DNA from: Escherichia coli
Lineage (GTDB): Bacteria; Pseudomonadota; Gammaproteobacteria; Enterobacterales; Enterobacteriaceae
Strand: one strand, 5' to 3'
DNA length: 64,000 nt
Assembly (NCBI RefSeq): GCF_048403405.1
Contig: NZ_CP183129.1
Part shown: positions 19,031 to 36,617 of the stretch, piece after piece
Layout: every line of letters begins with the position of its first letter
Position numbering within the stretch: the first letter of the stretch is position 1
The notes under the pieces: model-generated
The model's input: only the letters and a program-made list of their open reading frames with translations
Databases searched by the model: none
Told to the model about the DNA's origin: nothing
Program-made: the position numbers and the translations under genes

Positions 19031-19061
19031 ACAAAATCCCAGATGCGCCCCTATAAAGCGC

Positions 19062-19110
19062 ACGGACCGTCCCCTCGCCCCTCTGGGGAGAGGGTTAGGG
19101 TGAGGGGAAC
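19062..19110 (+). repeat. GC-rich palindromic dispersed repeat, copy 1 (possibly Box C-type; family unconfirmed)
   Basis: CGGACCGTCCCCTCGCCCCTCTGGGGAGAGGGTTAGGGTGAGGGGAACA; internal inverted repeat CCCTCGCCCC/GGGGAGAGGG; about 46 of 49 nt identical to 32455-32512, same orientation. Confidence 0.6.
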
Positions 19111-19132
19111 ATACAGCATCCGGCGATCACCA

Positions 19133-30434: not shown

Positions 30435-31271
30435 ATGGCGCACGACGAACAATGGCTCACCCCACGTCTGCAAACGGCGGCAACGCTGTGTAACCAGACG
30501 CCCGCCACGACGGAGTCTCCGCTGTGGCTGGGGGTAGATCTGGGCACCTGCGATGTGGTGTCGATGGTTGTCGACCGCGACGGTCAGCCGGTGGCGGTAT
30601 GCCTCGACTGGGCTGATGTGGTCCGCGACGGCATCGTCTGGGATTTCTTCGGTGCGGTCACCATTGTTCGTCGCCATCTCGACACTCTTGAGCAGCAATT
30701 CGGTCGCCGTTTTAGCCATGCGGCGACCTCATTTCCTCCTGGTACGGACCCGCGTATTTCCATCAACGTGCTGGAGTCTGCCGGACTGGAAGTGAGCCAT
30801 GTGCTGGATGAGCCAACCGCAGTTGCGGATCTGCTGCAACTGGACAACGCCGGTGTAGTGGATATCGGCGGTGGCACCACCGGCATTGCCATCGTGAAAA
30901 AGGGCAAGGTGACTTACTCGGCAGATGAAGCCACCGGCGGACATCATATCTCTCTGACTCTCGCCGGAAATCGCCGTATTTCGCTGGAAGAGGCGGAGCA
31001 GTACAAGCGCGGTCACGGTGACGAGATTTGGCCTGCGGTGAAACCGGTGTACGAAAAAATGGCGGACATTGTCGCCCGGCATATTGAAGGGCAGGGCATT
31101 ACTGATTTATGGCTGGCGGGCGGCTCTTGTATGCAACCGGGCGTGGCGGAACTGTTTCGCAAACAATTCCCGGCGTTACAGGTGCATCTACCGCAGCACA
31201 GTTTGTTTATGACCCCGCTGGCGATCGCCAGTAGCGGGCGAGAGAAAGCGGAGGGGATCTATGCAAAATGA
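30435..31271 (+). CDS. eutJ: EutJ, actin/Hsp70-fold chaperone-like protein
   Basis: 278 aa; sugar-kinase/Hsp70/actin-fold motifs (DLGTCDVVS, VDIGGGTTGIAIV). Confidence 0.88.
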   Translation: MAHDEQWLTPRLQTAATLCNQTPATTESPLWLGVDLGTCDVVSMVVDRDGQPVAVCLDWADVVRDGIVWDFFGAVTIVRRHLDTLEQQFGRRFSHAATSFPPGTDPRISINVLESAGLEVSHVLDEPTAVADLLQLDNAGVVDIGGGTTGIAIVKKGKVTYSADEATGGHHISLTLAGNRRISLEEAEQYKRGHGDEIWPAVKPVYEKMADIVARHIEGQGITDLWLAGGSCMQPGVAELFRKQFPALQVHLPQHSLFMTPLAIASSGREKAEGIYAK

Positions 31272-32448
31272 ATTGCAGGCCGCGCTCTTTCAGGCGTTCG
31301 ATACCCTGAATCTGCAACGGGTAAAAACATTTAGCGTTCCACCGGTGACGCTTTGCGGTCCGGGCGCGGTGAGCAGTTGTGGGCAGCAAGCGCAAACGCG
31401 TGGGCTGAAACATCTGTTCGTGATGGCAGACAGCTTTTTGCATCAGGCAGGGATGACCGCCGGGCTGACGCGTAGCCTGGCCGTTAAAGGTATCGCCATG
31501 ACGCTCTGGCCATGTCCGGTGGGCGAACCATGCATCACCGACATGTGTGCAGCCGTGGCGCAGTTGCGTGAATCAGGCTGTGACGGGGTGATTGCGTTTG
31601 GCGGCGGCTCGGTGCTGGATGCAGCAAAAGCCGTGGCGTTGCTGGTGACGAACCCGGATAGCACGCTGGCAGAGATGTCAGAAACCAGCGTTCTGCAACC
31701 GCGCCTGCCGTTGATTGCCATTCCAACTACCGCCGGAACCGGTTCTGAAACCACCAACGTAACGGTGATTATCGACGCGGTGAGCGGGCGCAAGCAGGTG
31801 TTAGCCCACGCCTCGCTGATGCCGGATGTGGCGATTCTCGACGCTGCGCTGACCGAAGGCGTGCCGTCGCATGTCACGGCGATGACCGGTATCGACGCGT
31901 TAACCCATGCTATTGAAGCGTACAGCGCGCTGAACGCTACACCGTTTACCGACAGCCTGGCGATTGGCGCAATCGCGATGATTGGTAAATCACTGCCGAA
32001 AGCGGTGGGCTACGGTCATGACCTTGCCGCGCGCGAGAGCATGTTGCTGGCTTCATGCATGGCGGGAATGGCGTTTTCCAGTGCGGGGCTTGGGTTATGC
32101 CACGCGATGGCGCATCAGCCGGGGGCGGCGCTGCATATTCCGCACGGTCTGGCGAACGCCATGTTGTTGCCAACGGTGATGGAATTTAACCGGATGGTTT
32201 GTCGTGAACGCTTTAGTCAGATTGGTCGGGCGCTGCGAACTAAAAAATCCGACGATCGTGACGCTATTAACGCGGTAAGTGAGCTGATTGCGGAAGTCGG
32301 GATTGGTAAACGACTGGGCGATATTGGTGCGACATCTGCGCATTACGGCGCATGGGCGCAGGCCGCGCTGGAAGATATTTGTCTGCGCAGCAACCCGCGT
32401 ACCGCCAGCCTGGAGCAGATTGTCGGCCTGTACGCAGCGGCGCAATAA
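31261..32448 (+). CDS. eutG: EutG, iron-containing alcohol dehydrogenase
   Basis: 395 aa Fe-ADH family (GGGSVLDAAK); 11-bp overlap with eutJ. Confidence 0.9.
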   Translation: MQNELQAALFQAFDTLNLQRVKTFSVPPVTLCGPGAVSSCGQQAQTRGLKHLFVMADSFLHQAGMTAGLTRSLAVKGIAMTLWPCPVGEPCITDMCAAVAQLRESGCDGVIAFGGGSVLDAAKAVALLVTNPDSTLAEMSETSVLQPRLPLIAIPTTAGTGSETTNVTVIIDAVSGRKQVLAHASLMPDVAILDAALTEGVPSHVTAMTGIDALTHAIEAYSALNATPFTDSLAIGAIAMIGKSLPKAVGYGHDLAARESMLLASCMAGMAFSSAGLGLCHAMAHQPGAALHIPHGLANAMLLPTVMEFNRMVCRERFSQIGRALRTKKSDDRDAINAVSELIAEVGIGKRLGDIGATSAHYGAWAQAALEDICLRSNPRTASLEQIVGLYAAAQ

Positions 32449-32452
32449 AAGT

Positions 32453-32574
32453 GTACGGACAGTCCCCTCGCCCCTTTGGGGAGAGGGTTAGGGTGAGGGG
32501 AACAGAGTCGCGCCGGTGCAAACAATTACCCTCACCCCGGCCCCTCGGCTTCCAGAGTGAGGGAAAAACCCACT
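32453..32574 (+). repeat. GC-rich multi-palindromic repeat, copy 2 (extended), between eutG and eutH
   Basis: Core 32455-32512 nearly identical to 19062-19110; further inverted arms GGGTGAGGG / CCCTCACCC / GTGAGGG within a 169-bp gap inside the eut operon. Confidence 0.6.
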
Positions 32575-32617
32575 TTCAGCATTGGCAATAAATAACAACT
32601 AACAGGGAGTAAAGGCG

Positions 32618-33844
32618 ATGGGAATTAACGAAATCATCATGTACATCATGATGTTCTTTATGCTGATAGCTGCCGTAGACAGGATCCTGTCGCAGTTCGG
32701 TGGTTCTGCTCGTTTCCTCGGTAAGTTCGGTAAAAGTATCGAAGGATCAGGCGGTCAGTTCGAAGAAGGCTTTATGGCAATGGGCGCTCTGGGCCTGGCG
32801 ATGGTCGGTATGACCGCGCTGGCACCGGTACTGGCTCACGTACTCGGGCCGGTGATTATCCCGGTTTACGAAATGCTCGGCGCAAACCCGTCAATGTTCG
32901 CCGGAACACTGCTGGCGTGCGATATGGGCGGGTTCTTCCTCGCCAAAGAGCTGGCGGGCGGCGACGTAGCAGCGTGGCTATACTCTGGGTTAATTCTCGG
33001 GTCGATGATGGGGCCAACGATTGTGTTTTCCATTCCGGTGGCGCTCGGCATTATCGAACCTTCTGACCGTCGTTATCTGGCGCTCGGCGTGCTGGCGGGC
33101 ATTGTGACCATTCCGATTGGCTGTATTGCTGGTGGTCTGGTTGCTATGTACTCCGGTGTGCAGATCAACGGTCAGCCGGTGGAATTCACCTTTGCGCTGA
33201 TCCTGATGAACATGATCCCGGTACTTATCGTTGCGGTGCTGGTGGCGCTGGGGCTGAAATTCATCCCGGAAAAAATGATCAACGGCTTCCAGATCTTCGC
33301 CAAATTCCTCGTTGCATTGATCACCCTCGGTCTTGCTGCCGCGGTAGTGAAATTCCTCCTTGGCTGGGAACTGATCCCCGGTCTGGATCCTATCTTTATG
33401 GCCCCTGGCGACAAACCCGGTGAAGTGATGCGCGCCATTGAAGTTATCGGTTCTATCTCCTGCGTTCTGTTAGGGGCGTACCCGATGGTGCTGCTGCTGA
33501 CCCGCTGGTTTGAAAAACCGCTGATGAGCGTCGGTAAAGTGCTGAATATGAACAACATCGCGGCAGCTGGCATGGTGGCAACGCTTGCTAACAACATCCC
33601 GATGTTCGGCATGATGAAGCAGATGGATACCCGCGGCAAAGTCATCAACTGCGCCTTCGCCGTTTCCGCTGCTTTCGCCCTGGGTGACCACTTAGGCTTC
33701 GCCGCTGCCAACATGAACGCCATGATTTTCCCGATGATTGTCGGCAAGTTGATCGGCGGCGTAACGGCGATTGGCGTGGCGATGATGCTGGTGCCAAAAG
33801 AAGACGCGACCGCGGCCAAAACCGAAGCGGAGGCACAATCGTGA
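32618..33844 (+). CDS. eutH: EutH, ethanolamine permease
   Basis: 408 aa polytopic membrane protein; ATG 32618 after GGGAG. Confidence 0.9.
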   Translation: MGINEIIMYIMMFFMLIAAVDRILSQFGGSARFLGKFGKSIEGSGGQFEEGFMAMGALGLAMVGMTALAPVLAHVLGPVIIPVYEMLGANPSMFAGTLLACDMGGFFLAKELAGGDVAAWLYSGLILGSMMGPTIVFSIPVALGIIEPSDRRYLALGVLAGIVTIPIGCIAGGLVAMYSGVQINGQPVEFTFALILMNMIPVLIVAVLVALGLKFIPEKMINGFQIFAKFLVALITLGLAAAVVKFLLGWELIPGLDPIFMAPGDKPGEVMRAIEVIGSISCVLLGAYPMVLLLTRWFEKPLMSVGKVLNMNNIAAAGMVATLANNIPMFGMMKQMDTRGKVINCAFAVSAAFALGDHLGFAAANMNAMIFPMIVGKLIGGVTAIGVAMMLVPKEDATAAKTEAEAQS

Positions 33845-35244
33845 ACACTCGCCAGCTACTGAGCGTCGGTATCGATATCGGCACCACCACCACCCAGGTG
33901 ATTTTCTCCCACCTGGAGCTGGTTAACCGTGCGGCGGTGTCGCAGGTGCCGCGCTACGAATTCATCAAACGCGAAATTAGCTGGCAAAGCCCGGTGTTCT
34001 TTACCCCTGTCGATAAACAGGGTGGTTTAAAAGAAGCGGAACTGAAAACCTTAATCCTGGAGCAATATCAGGCTGCGGGCATTGCGCCGGAAAGTGTTGA
34101 TTCTGGTGCCATCATCATCACCGGTGAAAGCGCGAAAACCCGCAACGCTCGCCCGGCGGTGATGACGCTCTCCCAGTCTCTGGGCGATTTTGTCGTCGCC
34201 AGCGCCGGGCCGCATCTCGAATCCGTGATCGCCGGTCACGGTGCCGGGGCGCAAACCCTTTCTGAACAACGGCTGTGTCGGGTACTGAATATCGATATCG
34301 GCGGTGGCACTGCGAACTACGCCCTGTTCGATGCCGGAAAAATCAGCGGCACCGCCTGCCTCAACGTCGGCGGTCGCCTGCTGGAAACCGACAGCCAGGG
34401 GCGCGTGGTTTACGCTCATAAACCGGGGCAGATGATTGTGGATGAGTGCTTCGGCGCAGGCACCGACGCCCGTTCGCTGACCGGCGCGCAGCTGGTGCAG
34501 GTTACCCGGCGGATGGCAGAGCTGATTGTCGAAGTGATTGACGGAACGCTTTCGCCGCTCGCGCAGGCATTAATGCAAACCGGTTTGCTGCCCGCAGGTG
34601 TTACGCCCGAAATCATTACGCTTTCTGGCGGCGTGGGCGAATGTTATCGCCACCAGCCCGCCGACCCGTTCTGTTTTGCCGATATCGGCCCGCTTCTGGC
34701 AACGGCGCTGCATGACCATCCGCGCCTGCGTGAGATGAACGTGCAGTTTCCGGCGCAAACCGTACGCGCCACGGTGATTGGCGCGGGTGCACATACCCTT
34801 TCGCTCTCTGGCAGCACAATCTGGCTGGAGGGCGTACAACTGCCGCTGCGCAATTTGCCGGTGGCGATCCCAATTGATGAAACGGATCTGGTGAGTGCCT
34901 GGCAACAGGCGCTGATTCAGCTGGATCTTGATCCCAATTCTGACGCGTACGTGCTGGCGCTTCCCGCCTCGCTGCCTGTGCGTTACGCCGCGGTACTGAC
35001 GGTCATCAACGCGCTGGTCGATTTCGTCGCGCGTTTTCCGAATCCGCATCCCCTGCTGGTGGTGGCCGGGCAGGACTTTGGTAAAGCTCTGGGCATGTTG
35101 TTGCGCCCACAGCTACAACAACTCCCGTTGGCAGTCATTGACGAAGTGATTGTCCGCGCGGGGGACTATATCGACATTGGTACGCCTCTTTTTGGCGGAT
35201 CGGTTGTGCCGGTGACGGTGAAATCACTCGCATTTCCTTCCTGA
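33841..35244 (+). CDS. eutA: EutA, ethanolamine ammonia-lyase reactivase
   Basis: 467 aa; GTG start 33841 overlapping the eutH stop; ASKHA-fold motifs (GIDIGTTTT). Confidence 0.9.
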   Translation: MNTRQLLSVGIDIGTTTTQVIFSHLELVNRAAVSQVPRYEFIKREISWQSPVFFTPVDKQGGLKEAELKTLILEQYQAAGIAPESVDSGAIIITGESAKTRNARPAVMTLSQSLGDFVVASAGPHLESVIAGHGAGAQTLSEQRLCRVLNIDIGGGTANYALFDAGKISGTACLNVGGRLLETDSQGRVVYAHKPGQMIVDECFGAGTDARSLTGAQLVQVTRRMAELIVEVIDGTLSPLAQALMQTGLLPAGVTPEIITLSGGVGECYRHQPADPFCFADIGPLLATALHDHPRLREMNVQFPAQTVRATVIGAGAHTLSLSGSTIWLEGVQLPLRNLPVAIPIDETDLVSAWQQALIQLDLDPNSDAYVLALPASLPVRYAAVLTVINALVDFVARFPNPHPLLVVAGQDFGKALGMLLRPQLQQLPLAVIDEVIVRAGDYIDIGTPLFGGSVVPVTVKSLAFPS

Positions 35245-35255
35245 GGGAACGACTT

Positions 35256-36617
35256 ATGAAACTAAAGACCACATTGTTCGGCAATGTATATCAGTTTAAG
35301 GATGTAAAAGAGGTGCTGGCTAAAGCCAACGAACTGCGTTCGGGGGATGTGCTGGCGGGCGTTGCAGCGGCAAGCTCACAAGAGCGCGTGGCGGCAAAGC
35401 AGGTGTTGTCGGAAATGACCGTAGCGGACATCCGCAATAATCCGGTGATTGCCTATGAAGATGACTGCGTGACGCGGCTGATTCAGGACGACGTTAACGA
35501 AACGGCCTACAACCAGATTAAAAACTGGAGCATCAGCGAACTGCGTGAGTATGTCCTGAGCGATGAAACCAGCGTGGACGACATTGCCTTTACCCGCAAA
35601 GGGCTGACCTCGGAAGTGGTTGCGGCGGTAGCGAAGATTTGCTCCAACGCGGACCTGATCTACGGCGCGAAGAAAATGCCGGTAATCAAAAAGGCCAATA
35701 CCACCATCGGTATTCCGGGCACCTTCAGCGCCCGTTTGCAGCCAAATGACACCCGTGACGACGTGCAAAGTATCGCTGCGCAAATCTACGAAGGGCTTTC
35801 CTTCGGGGTGGGCGATGCGGTGATCGGCGTCAACCCGGTGACGGACGACGTGGAAAACTTAAGCCGCGTGCTGGACACCATCTACGGCGTGATCGACAAA
35901 TTCAACATTCCGACCCAGGGCTGCGTGCTGGCGCACGTCACCACCCAGATTGAAGCGATCCGTCGTGGCGCACCGGGCGGGCTGATTTTCCAGAGTATCT
36001 GCGGCAGCGAAAAAGGGCTGAAAGAGTTTGGCGTGGAGCTGGCGATGCTCGATGAAGCACGCGCAGTGGGCGCGGAGTTCAACCGTATCGCCGGGGAAAA
36101 CTGCCTCTACTTCGAAACCGGACAAGGTTCGGCGCTGTCCGCTGGCGCTAACTTCGGCGCTGACCAGGTGACGATGGAAGCGCGTAACTATGGGCTGGCG
36201 CGTCATTACGATCCGTTTATCGTCAACACCGTGGTCGGTTTTATTGGGCCGGAGTATCTCTACAACGACCGCCAGATTATCCGCGCGGGCTTAGAAGATC
36301 ACTTTATGGGCAAGCTGAGCGGCATCTCTATGGGCTGTGACTGCTGCTACACCAACCACGCTGACGCTGACCAGAACCTCAACGAAAACCTGATGATCCT
36401 GCTCGCCACCGCAGGCTGTAACTACATCATGGGGATGCCGCTGGGTGATGACATCATGCTCAACTACCAGACTACGGCCTTCCACGACACCGCCACTGTG
36501 CGTCAGTTACTCAACCTGCGCCCGTCACCGGAGTTTGAACGCTGGCTGGAAAGCATGGGCATTATGGCAAACGGTCGCCTGACCAAACGGGCGGGCGATC
36601 CGTCACTGTTCTTCTGA
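35256..36617 (+). CDS. eutB: EutB, ethanolamine ammonia-lyase large subunit
   Basis: 453 aa, MKLKTTLFGNVYQFKDVKEVLAKANELRSGDVLAGVAA...; starts 11 bp after eutA. Confidence 0.93.
   Translation: MKLKTTLFGNVYQFKDVKEVLAKANELRSGDVLAGVAAASSQERVAAKQVLSEMTVADIRNNPVIAYEDDCVTRLIQDDVNETAYNQIKNWSISELREYVLSDETSVDDIAFTRKGLTSEVVAAVAKICSNADLIYGAKKMPVIKKANTTIGIPGTFSARLQPNDTRDDVQSIAAQIYEGLSFGVGDAVIGVNPVTDDVENLSRVLDTIYGVIDKFNIPTQGCVLAHVTTQIEAIRRGAPGGLIFQSICGSEKGLKEFGVELAMLDEARAVGAEFNRIAGENCLYFETGQGSALSAGANFGADQVTMEARNYGLARHYDPFIVNTVVGFIGPEYLYNDRQIIRAGLEDHFMGKLSGISMGCDCCYTNHADADQNLNENLMILLATAGCNYIMGMPLGDDIMLNYQTTAFHDTATVRQLLNLRPSPEFERWLESMGIMANGRLTKRAGDPSLFF

Follow-up and report, generated by a model that had tools for sequence, protein, structure and literature searches.

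A BoxC (PIT/TMECO) repeat between eutG and eutH in a minority of Escherichia coli, at a junction held by REP/BIME elements in other strains

The window, a stretch of 64,000 nt of Escherichia coli DNA, carries the eut operon on its + strand in the order eutS-P-Q-T-D-M-N-E-J-G-H-A-B-C-L-K-R. The reading frame at 31261-32448 (+), which E. coli records of the same or nearly the same sequence label eutG, closes with a stop codon at 32446-32448, and eutH (32618-33844, +) begins with the ATG at 32618, which leaves a gap of 169 bp (32449-32617). This is the widest intercistronic spacer of the operon, as a first-pass annotation of the sequence had stated, the runner-up being the 106 bp between eutM and eutN. 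The gap is occupied by a GC-rich structured block with inverted arms, and our repeat search recovered all three sets of arms that had been described there; one of them, CCCTCGCCCC/GGGGAGAGGG, is paired at 9 of 10 positions, judged by eye. A near-perfect palindrome, ATCATCATGTACATCATGAT, lies just beyond the gap at 32633-32654, in the first codons of eutH (MGINEIIMYIMM); it was flagged as terminator-like on both strands, and it probably just follows from the Ile/Met-rich N-terminus. Further downstream, eutA (33841-35244) adjoins eutB (35256-36617), and the cryptic prophage CPZ-55, which lies between these two genes in K-12 (2558691-2565480), is absent here.

Judged by its sequence, the eutG-eutH repeat is a copy of BoxC, also known as PIT or TMECO, and thus belongs to an already published family, not to a new one. 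A full-text literature search with the string GGGTTAGGGTGAGGG led to the work of Holder et al. 2015 (PMC4666352), whose Table 1 gives 23 TMECO elements in E. coli K-12; the core of the window copy, CCCTCGCCCCTTTGGGGAGAGGGTTAGGGTGAGGGG, is letter-identical to nos. 7, 11 and 15 of that table (type "A mm"). The regular expression published there, CCCTCNCCC-N3-6-GGGNGAGGG-N3-GGGNGAGGG, matches at 32465-32499 and at 19072-19106, both on the + strand, and nowhere else in the 64 kb. The earlier annotation had suspected a repeat family with Box C among the candidates, and this match, together with the identity to K-12 entries, bears it out. TMECO is the same as the BoxC of the 1990s and the PIT of Hoyne et al. 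2000 (Holder et al. 2015, PMC4666352); BoxC is listed among the known E. coli families with a length of 56 bp and 32 copies (Cozzuto et al. 2008, PMC2267715), and the same motif was reread as a G-quadruplex/hairpin switch by Kaplan et al. 2016 (PMC5100583). Identical sequences form an intrastrand purine-motif triplex in vitro, as seen by CD and NMR (PMC4666352). The genomic distribution is that of a multi-copy, chromosomal and intergenic family: megablast recovered a median of 7 places per E. coli genome, only 10 of about 37,500 places were plasmid-borne, the remainder being chromosomal, and all the BoxC copies inspected were intergenic. Strain W is among the BoxC-rich strains, with 30 copies. 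An Rfam scan of 31000-34000 returned nothing meaningful, the best matches (E = 0.17 to 7) falling far under the gathering scores. Early accounts of BoxC are those of Bergler in 1992 and of Bachellier in the 1990s.

We aligned the eut copy with those at cca-bacA, gcvP-ygfF, yijF-gldA, trmJ-iscR, sstT-alx and fepB-entC, and with metagenome copies. In the full element, the conserved left flank AAAAGTGCACGGACAG precedes a type A arm; a central spacer, which contains a small palindrome, separates this arm from an inverted type B arm, and a GGGGGAAAA run follows. Only some copies continue into a tail ending ...GAGCCACTTTG...GCAATCTCAAA. Pairs of a type A and an inverted type B arm are found at cca-bacA, gcvP-ygfF, yijF-gldA, sstT-alx and fepB-entC, and such pairs are known at five K-12 loci (PMC4666352). 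At eut, the last bases of eutG, GCAATAA+A, form the left junction of the insert and belong to a direct repeat, GCAATAAA, whose left copy (32442-32449, +) overlaps the stop codon; the REP/BIME alleles described below use this same left junction. The family-conserved left flank AGTGTACGGACAGT (32450-32463, +; consensus AAAAGTGCACGGACAGT) leads into an intact type A arm at 32465-32499 (+), composed of a C-rich domain (32464-32474), a second, G-rich domain (32478-32487), a TTA loop and a third, G-rich domain (32491-32500), and this arm is also a canonical G-quadruplex motif. The central spacer of the palindromic pair (32504-32525) contains the small palindrome GCGCCGGTGC at 32510-32519 (consensus GCACCGGTGC). 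The inverted type B arm, CCCTCACTCTGGAAGCCGAGGGGCCGGGGTGAGGGT (32528-32563, -), aligned against K-12 type B no. 10, is decayed: its first two domains are degenerate, so that it fails the TMECO expression on its own, and it retains the CCG loop characteristic of type B, making the eut element an A plus inverted B pair. The tail AAAAACCCACTTTCAGCATTG (32564-32584, +) is a shortened form, cut down to CCACTTTCAGCATTGGCAAT, of the tail common to the long copies at gcvP-ygfF, yijF-gldA and a third locus (L098). Next to it stands the right copy of GCAATAAA (32585-32592, +); as GCAAT is present in the family tail, this copy probably takes GCAAT from the element and AAA from the target, which leaves no clear target-site duplication. 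The native eutH leader follows at 32593-32617 (+), with the Shine-Dalgarno sequence GGGAG at 32605-32609, and is homologous to the entire 27-nt gap found in some Citrobacter. The element with its own flanks takes up nearly all of the 143 bp between the eutG stop and the 26-nt eutH leader, and essentially the entire insert (32450 to about 32589) is BoxC. Compared with the published family, the eut copy has a 36-nt core identical to K-12 members and the same build of a type A arm (TTA loop) with an inverted type B arm, and it is likewise intergenic, chromosomal, multi-copy, strain-variable and prone to palindrome-type deletions; it differs in its decayed B arm and shortened tail, in occupying a locus that is unoccupied in K-12, and in lying inside an operon, between co-transcribed genes, and not at an operon boundary.

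The second BoxC of the window (19062-19110, +) has just one arm, of type A, preceded by the conserved left flank, and is set in the gap between the convergent genes ypfG and tktB. Apart from 1 mismatch, the 40-nt core of the eut copy (32464-32503) is found again at 19071-19110, for which shuffled sequences give an expectation of 0, and over the 49-nt stretch at 19062-19110 the two copies agree at 47/49 positions; the second copy first reported is thus real, with an identity of 96% in place of the claimed 94% or so. The 19072 copy has the same sequence as TMECO nos. 9, 16, 19 and 22 (Table 1, PMC4666352). K-12 and other strains have a REP instead of BoxC at ypfG-tktB, and since Table 1 of PMC4666352 places no K-12 TMECO near 2.56-2.58 Mb, both window copies are absent from K-12. 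The BoxC allele at ypfG-tktB was seen in about one sixth of a spread sample of strains, ATCC 25922 included; in a comparison of window 19031-19132 with L065-L069, the REP alleles of this locus carry a 14-nt tandem repeat, CAGCATCCGGCAAT, in 1 to about 5 copies. Canonical G-quadruplex motifs occur just three times in the 64 kb (19085, 30293 and 32478), all on the + strand, and two of them are the BoxC copies.

We then surveyed 5,426 complete E. coli genomes, 5,392 of which contain the eutG and eutH flanks. The window-type BoxC spacer is present in 303 of the 5,426 (~6%). The other alleles read have REP/BIME arrays between the same junctions, built of 100-bp units that number from one to several; the K-12 array has two. 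Their gaps span 99-578 bp (99, 116, 216, 315, 474, 516 and 578 were observed in Escherichia, at L001-L004, L016-L018 and L057; those of E. coli run from 99, 116 and 216 up to 516) and vary in steps of the 100-bp BIME unit, from 1 to about 6 units; the array is in effect a natural VNTR within an operon. The REP/BIME motif GCC(G/T)GATG...CTTATC(C/A)GGCCTAC (a unit of ~35 nt), present in K-12, O157 and other alleles, is absent from the window gap, and the eutH leader with its Shine-Dalgarno sequence is the same in BoxC and REP alleles. A synthetic junction query found no empty eutG-eutH site in 5,409 matching genomes; its best coverage, 82%, came from REP tails that fortuitously resemble the end of eutG. 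One strain, E300010 (L014), has a derivative of the BoxC allele lacking 64 bp (equivalent to window 32465-32528) between direct repeats CCCTC[G/A]CCCC. The deletion leaves one hairpin-capable remnant and agrees with the 'palindrome effect' deletions reported for paired TMECOs (PMC4666352). The 169-bp spacer is 100% identical among strains whose flanking eutG is up to 8% divergent. When window 31900-33200 is compared with strain SWHEFF_68 (L006), the spacer is 100% identical while the 3' end of eutG differs at 44/549 positions, with a hyperdivergent patch at 32284-32340, a pattern that suggests mosaic recombination around the element.

Outside E. coli, 48 of 50 eutH loci from GTDB species representatives were scored for gap content, and BoxC was at eutG-eutH in 0 of the 48. 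The genomes labelled E. whittamii, E1V33, MOD1-EC7003 and SCPM-O-B-8794 all have the REP/BIME allele with junctions as in E. coli. As REP/BIME is thus found in all the other Escherichia-labelled genomes scored, it is likely, from these comparisons, that REP is ancestral in the genus and that the minority of E. coli with BoxC show a derived state. REP types of their own are found, in gaps of 60-216 bp, in Citrobacter, Klebsiella, Pseudocitrobacter and Salmonella diarizonae. The close spacing of eutG and eutH that had been expected in Salmonella was found in part among relatives: in six Citrobacter genomes the two genes are separated by only 27 nt, caataaATACACATATGACAGGGAGTGAAGGCTatg, a bare gap which has no hairpin and equals the E. 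coli sequence minus the insert, and in Salmonella diarizonae the gap measures 67 nt and contains one REP, but REP/BIME occupies the junction in most genomes of Escherichia, Klebsiella and Citrobacter. In Buttiauxella, Morganella, Yokenella and Pluralibacter (L041-L054) the gap is 32-48 nt long, in many cases with a small GC hairpin. This hairpin stands just upstream of the eutH Shine-Dalgarno sequence, as in GCCTG-N4-5-CAGGC. One intercistronic junction thus offers a natural allelic series (27-nt empty, one REP, BIME of 1-6 units, BoxC, BoxC deletion) which could be used to measure the effects of repeats on polycistronic mRNA.

No candidate signal for transcription was detected in the gap. A scan of 32449-32617 found no hairpin followed by a T-run, its sole hits falling on the palindrome inside eutH (32635-32653), and no sigma-70-like promoter site was found between eutG and eutH. 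The RNA folding that the first-pass annotation had recommended as a check gave structures of high absolute stability (-50.4 kcal/mol over the 117 nt of the element, -23.7 kcal/mol for a single arm), but with z-scores (-1.3 to -2.0 for the whole element, -2.6 for one arm) that are unexceptional for the base composition. The published record of the family is similarly negative. PIT/BoxC lacked promoter and terminator activity when tested (Hoyne & Maher 2002, summarised in PMC4666352); TMECO/PIT had no effect on RNA polymerase or reverse transcriptase, did not block replication in vivo, and gave no sign of a stable triplex in in vivo DMS footprinting (all summarised in PMC4666352). TMECOs also show no bias in flanking gene function, nearest-gene distance or operon position, and their loci are far more variable in sequence than control loci (Holder et al., PMC4666352).

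REP/BIME elements resemble BoxC in that they are extragenic GC-rich palindromes transcribed within mRNAs, and they hold this very junction in other alleles and in related genera; the two nevertheless have no sequence similarity. REPs stabilise mRNA, attenuate transcription, bind gyrase and IHF, and have an associated RAYT transposase. To our knowledge, BoxC has none of these documented roles, nor an association with RAYT. In the BoxC allele the first stem starts at a distance of 15 nt from the eutG stop, and in REP alleles the palindrome starts at 1-2 nt. Liang and Deutscher reportedly found that a REP can stall ribosomes at termination if it begins no more than about 15 nt beyond the stop codon. 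Given these distances, 15 against 1-2 nt, EutG output could therefore differ between the two alleles.

In view of the published negative tests of the family and of the 6% frequency, we consider it fairly probable that the eut BoxC is a tolerated passenger repeat that is read through and has no eut-specific function. In one minority set of E. coli lineages, BoxC fills a hot spot directly after the eutG stop, the one that is held by a REP/BIME array in other Escherichia and is empty in some Citrobacter. It would be transcribed within the eut mRNA and, as it contains no recognisable terminator, presumably read through; it leaves the translation signals of eutH intact, and its presence would be neutral. 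Any effect on expression would then be generic, arising from a stable G/C-rich stem-loop cluster in which the C-rich arm could pair with either G-rich domain; like REPs, such stem-loops could retard 3'-to-5' degradation of the mRNA upstream. In DNA, the same sequence is an unstable, structure-prone palindrome. A striking GC-rich palindrome is thus a catalogued generic repeat, and not a conserved regulator of microcompartment gene ratios.

Some observations speak against a mere passenger. A stem-loop-forming sequence, whether REP, BIME, BoxC or a small hairpin, is in the gap of nearly every species examined, and structured RNA could be favoured there; the 100% identity of the spacer beside divergent eutG sequences could reflect constraint rather than recent recombination; and emptiness may be disfavoured, given that no empty E. 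coli site was found. The plausible main rival is accordingly a generic, REP-like barrier to decay of the upstream mRNA, in which the BoxC stem-loops would block 3'-to-5' exonucleases and stabilise eutS-eutG relative to eutH-eutK. BoxC would then have replaced a REP/BIME doing the same job, at a site selected for some structured element. A REP reportedly stabilises the upstream mRNA at malE-malF, according to Newbury and colleagues in 1987, and this precedent, the absolute stability of the predicted folds and the structured repeat or hairpin in the gap of most Enterobacteriaceae examined, with no empty site in E. coli, would all fit; a protective effect of this kind on the upstream mRNA is possible. 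We nonetheless regard this reading, including the selection that it supposes, as unlikely, as the six Citrobacter with a bare 27-nt gap and no hairpin show structure to be dispensable, the folding z-scores are unremarkable, and the family as a whole showed no tie to gene function or to position in operons (PMC4666352).

Partial termination, an earlier proposal for this element, fares worse. Hairpins, or an RNA or DNA G-quadruplex or triplex of GGGGAGAGGGTTAGGGTGAGGGG, would stop some polymerases and thereby lower eutH-A-B-C-L-K. The sense strand does carry a canonical G-quadruplex motif, and Kaplan et al. 2016 (PMC5100583) showed that the motif switches between hairpin and G4 in vitro and suggested that copies inside operons act as terminators. 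Their HPG1 G-quadruplex-hairpin-duplex switch has the same GGGGAGAGGGTTAGGGTGAGGGG and a C-rich 5' flank, but it is a structural reinterpretation of BoxC that rests on in vitro CD data, and DMS footprinting in vivo spoke against a stable triplex (PMC4666352). Like intrinsic terminators and intercistronic attenuators, the eut BoxC consists of GC-rich stem-loops in a transcribed spacer; unlike them, it has no U-tract after any stem, and the reporter tests of the family were negative (PMC4666352). Strong polarity would also be costly, because eutH-eutK encode a needed lyase and shell proteins, and we hold partial termination to be highly improbable. The first-pass annotation had itself named absence from most E. 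coli eut loci without phenotype as evidence against any operon-tuning role, and as to frequency this is the case, the element being absent from about 94% of them; the tuning proposal is not supported. A further possibility is that the element acts on DNA, a triplex-, G4- and cruciform-prone palindrome destabilising the locus and driving allele turnover, with the eut context incidental. TMECO loci are indeed far more variable than controls (PMC4666352), and the gap is hypervariable: it may hold BoxC, the derivative that has lost 64 bp, or a BIME array of between 1 and about 6 units. REP alleles, which have no BoxC, account however for most of the differences in length, the BoxC allele is nearly invariant among the genomes read, and association does not show causation, all of which makes a DNA-level role quite unlikely.

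How the element came to lie between eutG and eutH is a separate matter. A MITE-like history, in which BoxC transposed into an empty GCAATAAA target with an 8-bp target-site duplication and terminal inverted repeats AAAGTG...CACTTT, would account for the GCAATAAA on both sides of the insert, for the complementarity between the AAAGTG of the left end and a CACTTT close to the right one, and for the Citrobacter empty site, which is the predicted pre-insertion sequence. We rejected it, and think it improbable, since the 8-bp repeat was found only at eut (0/4 of the other filled-versus-alternative loci, namely ypfG-tktB, cca-bacA, trmJ-iscR and yijF-gldA) and the right GCAAT belongs to the tail of the family itself. 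The candidate terminal repeats are, moreover, just 6 nt long, REP alleles carry a similar CAATAAAT duplication at the same site, association with a transposase is unreported, and plasmid copies are rare. The junctions of the eut insert are most simply read as the product of joining at microhomology.

At all five strain-variable BoxC loci that could be cleanly compared (5/5), the other allele holds a REP or BIME between exactly the same boundaries. These are eutG-eutH, ypfG-tktB, cca-bacA (L008/L070), trmJ-iscR (L011/L071) and yijF-gldA (L010/L072), and at the last three a BoxC pair in one strain stands exactly where K-12 has a BIME. Such agreement is unlikely by chance, because a REP-like motif is found in ~1 in 8 intergenic windows, a crude baseline drawn from the metagenome comparison described below and assuming about 12% non-coding sequence. 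Shared permissive hot spots, element replacement or selection for some structured element may each account for it, and we would propose, tentatively, that BoxC and REP/BIME are systematic alternative occupants of the same intergenic junctions. We know of no mobility mechanism for BoxC. One might speculate that it enters REP sites by copying, or changes places with them, through REP-directed cleavage or repair, for instance, or through microhomology-mediated template switching; alternatively, some structured element might be selected for at those mRNA positions. The swap pattern is in any case a concrete lead on BoxC mobility, and either the mechanism or the selection, if true, would be a first handle on the spread of BoxC. 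The swap was reportedly noted in part in 1997: the abstract of an article by Bachellier and colleagues (Genetics 145:551) is reported to mention boxC insertions in polymorphic BIME regions.

The gcvP-ygfF locus was tried as a sixth filled-versus-empty comparison and proved uninformative, its alternative allele being a larger region swap. We likewise rejected an enrichment of physical adjacency between the two kinds of repeat: a REP-like motif lies within 150 nt of 8/67 metagenome BoxC copies, compared with 47/2,881 background windows that are mostly coding, and 8/67 is roughly the intergenic baseline. Among the metagenome sequences, a BoxC type A arm was also seen at iclR-aceK, beside a conserved block of ~170 nt, in L110 (6148-9253) and about a dozen further loci (L076, L078, L085, L086, L103, L107, L118, L124, L128, L151 and L191 among them). 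The block has no Rfam match, and the idea that it is a group II intron or another mobile element was dropped once it was recognised as the iclR-aceK intergenic region. The outer flanks of these copies are divergent, and the iclR-aceK BoxC appears to be an orthologous locus retained across several enterobacterial taxa.
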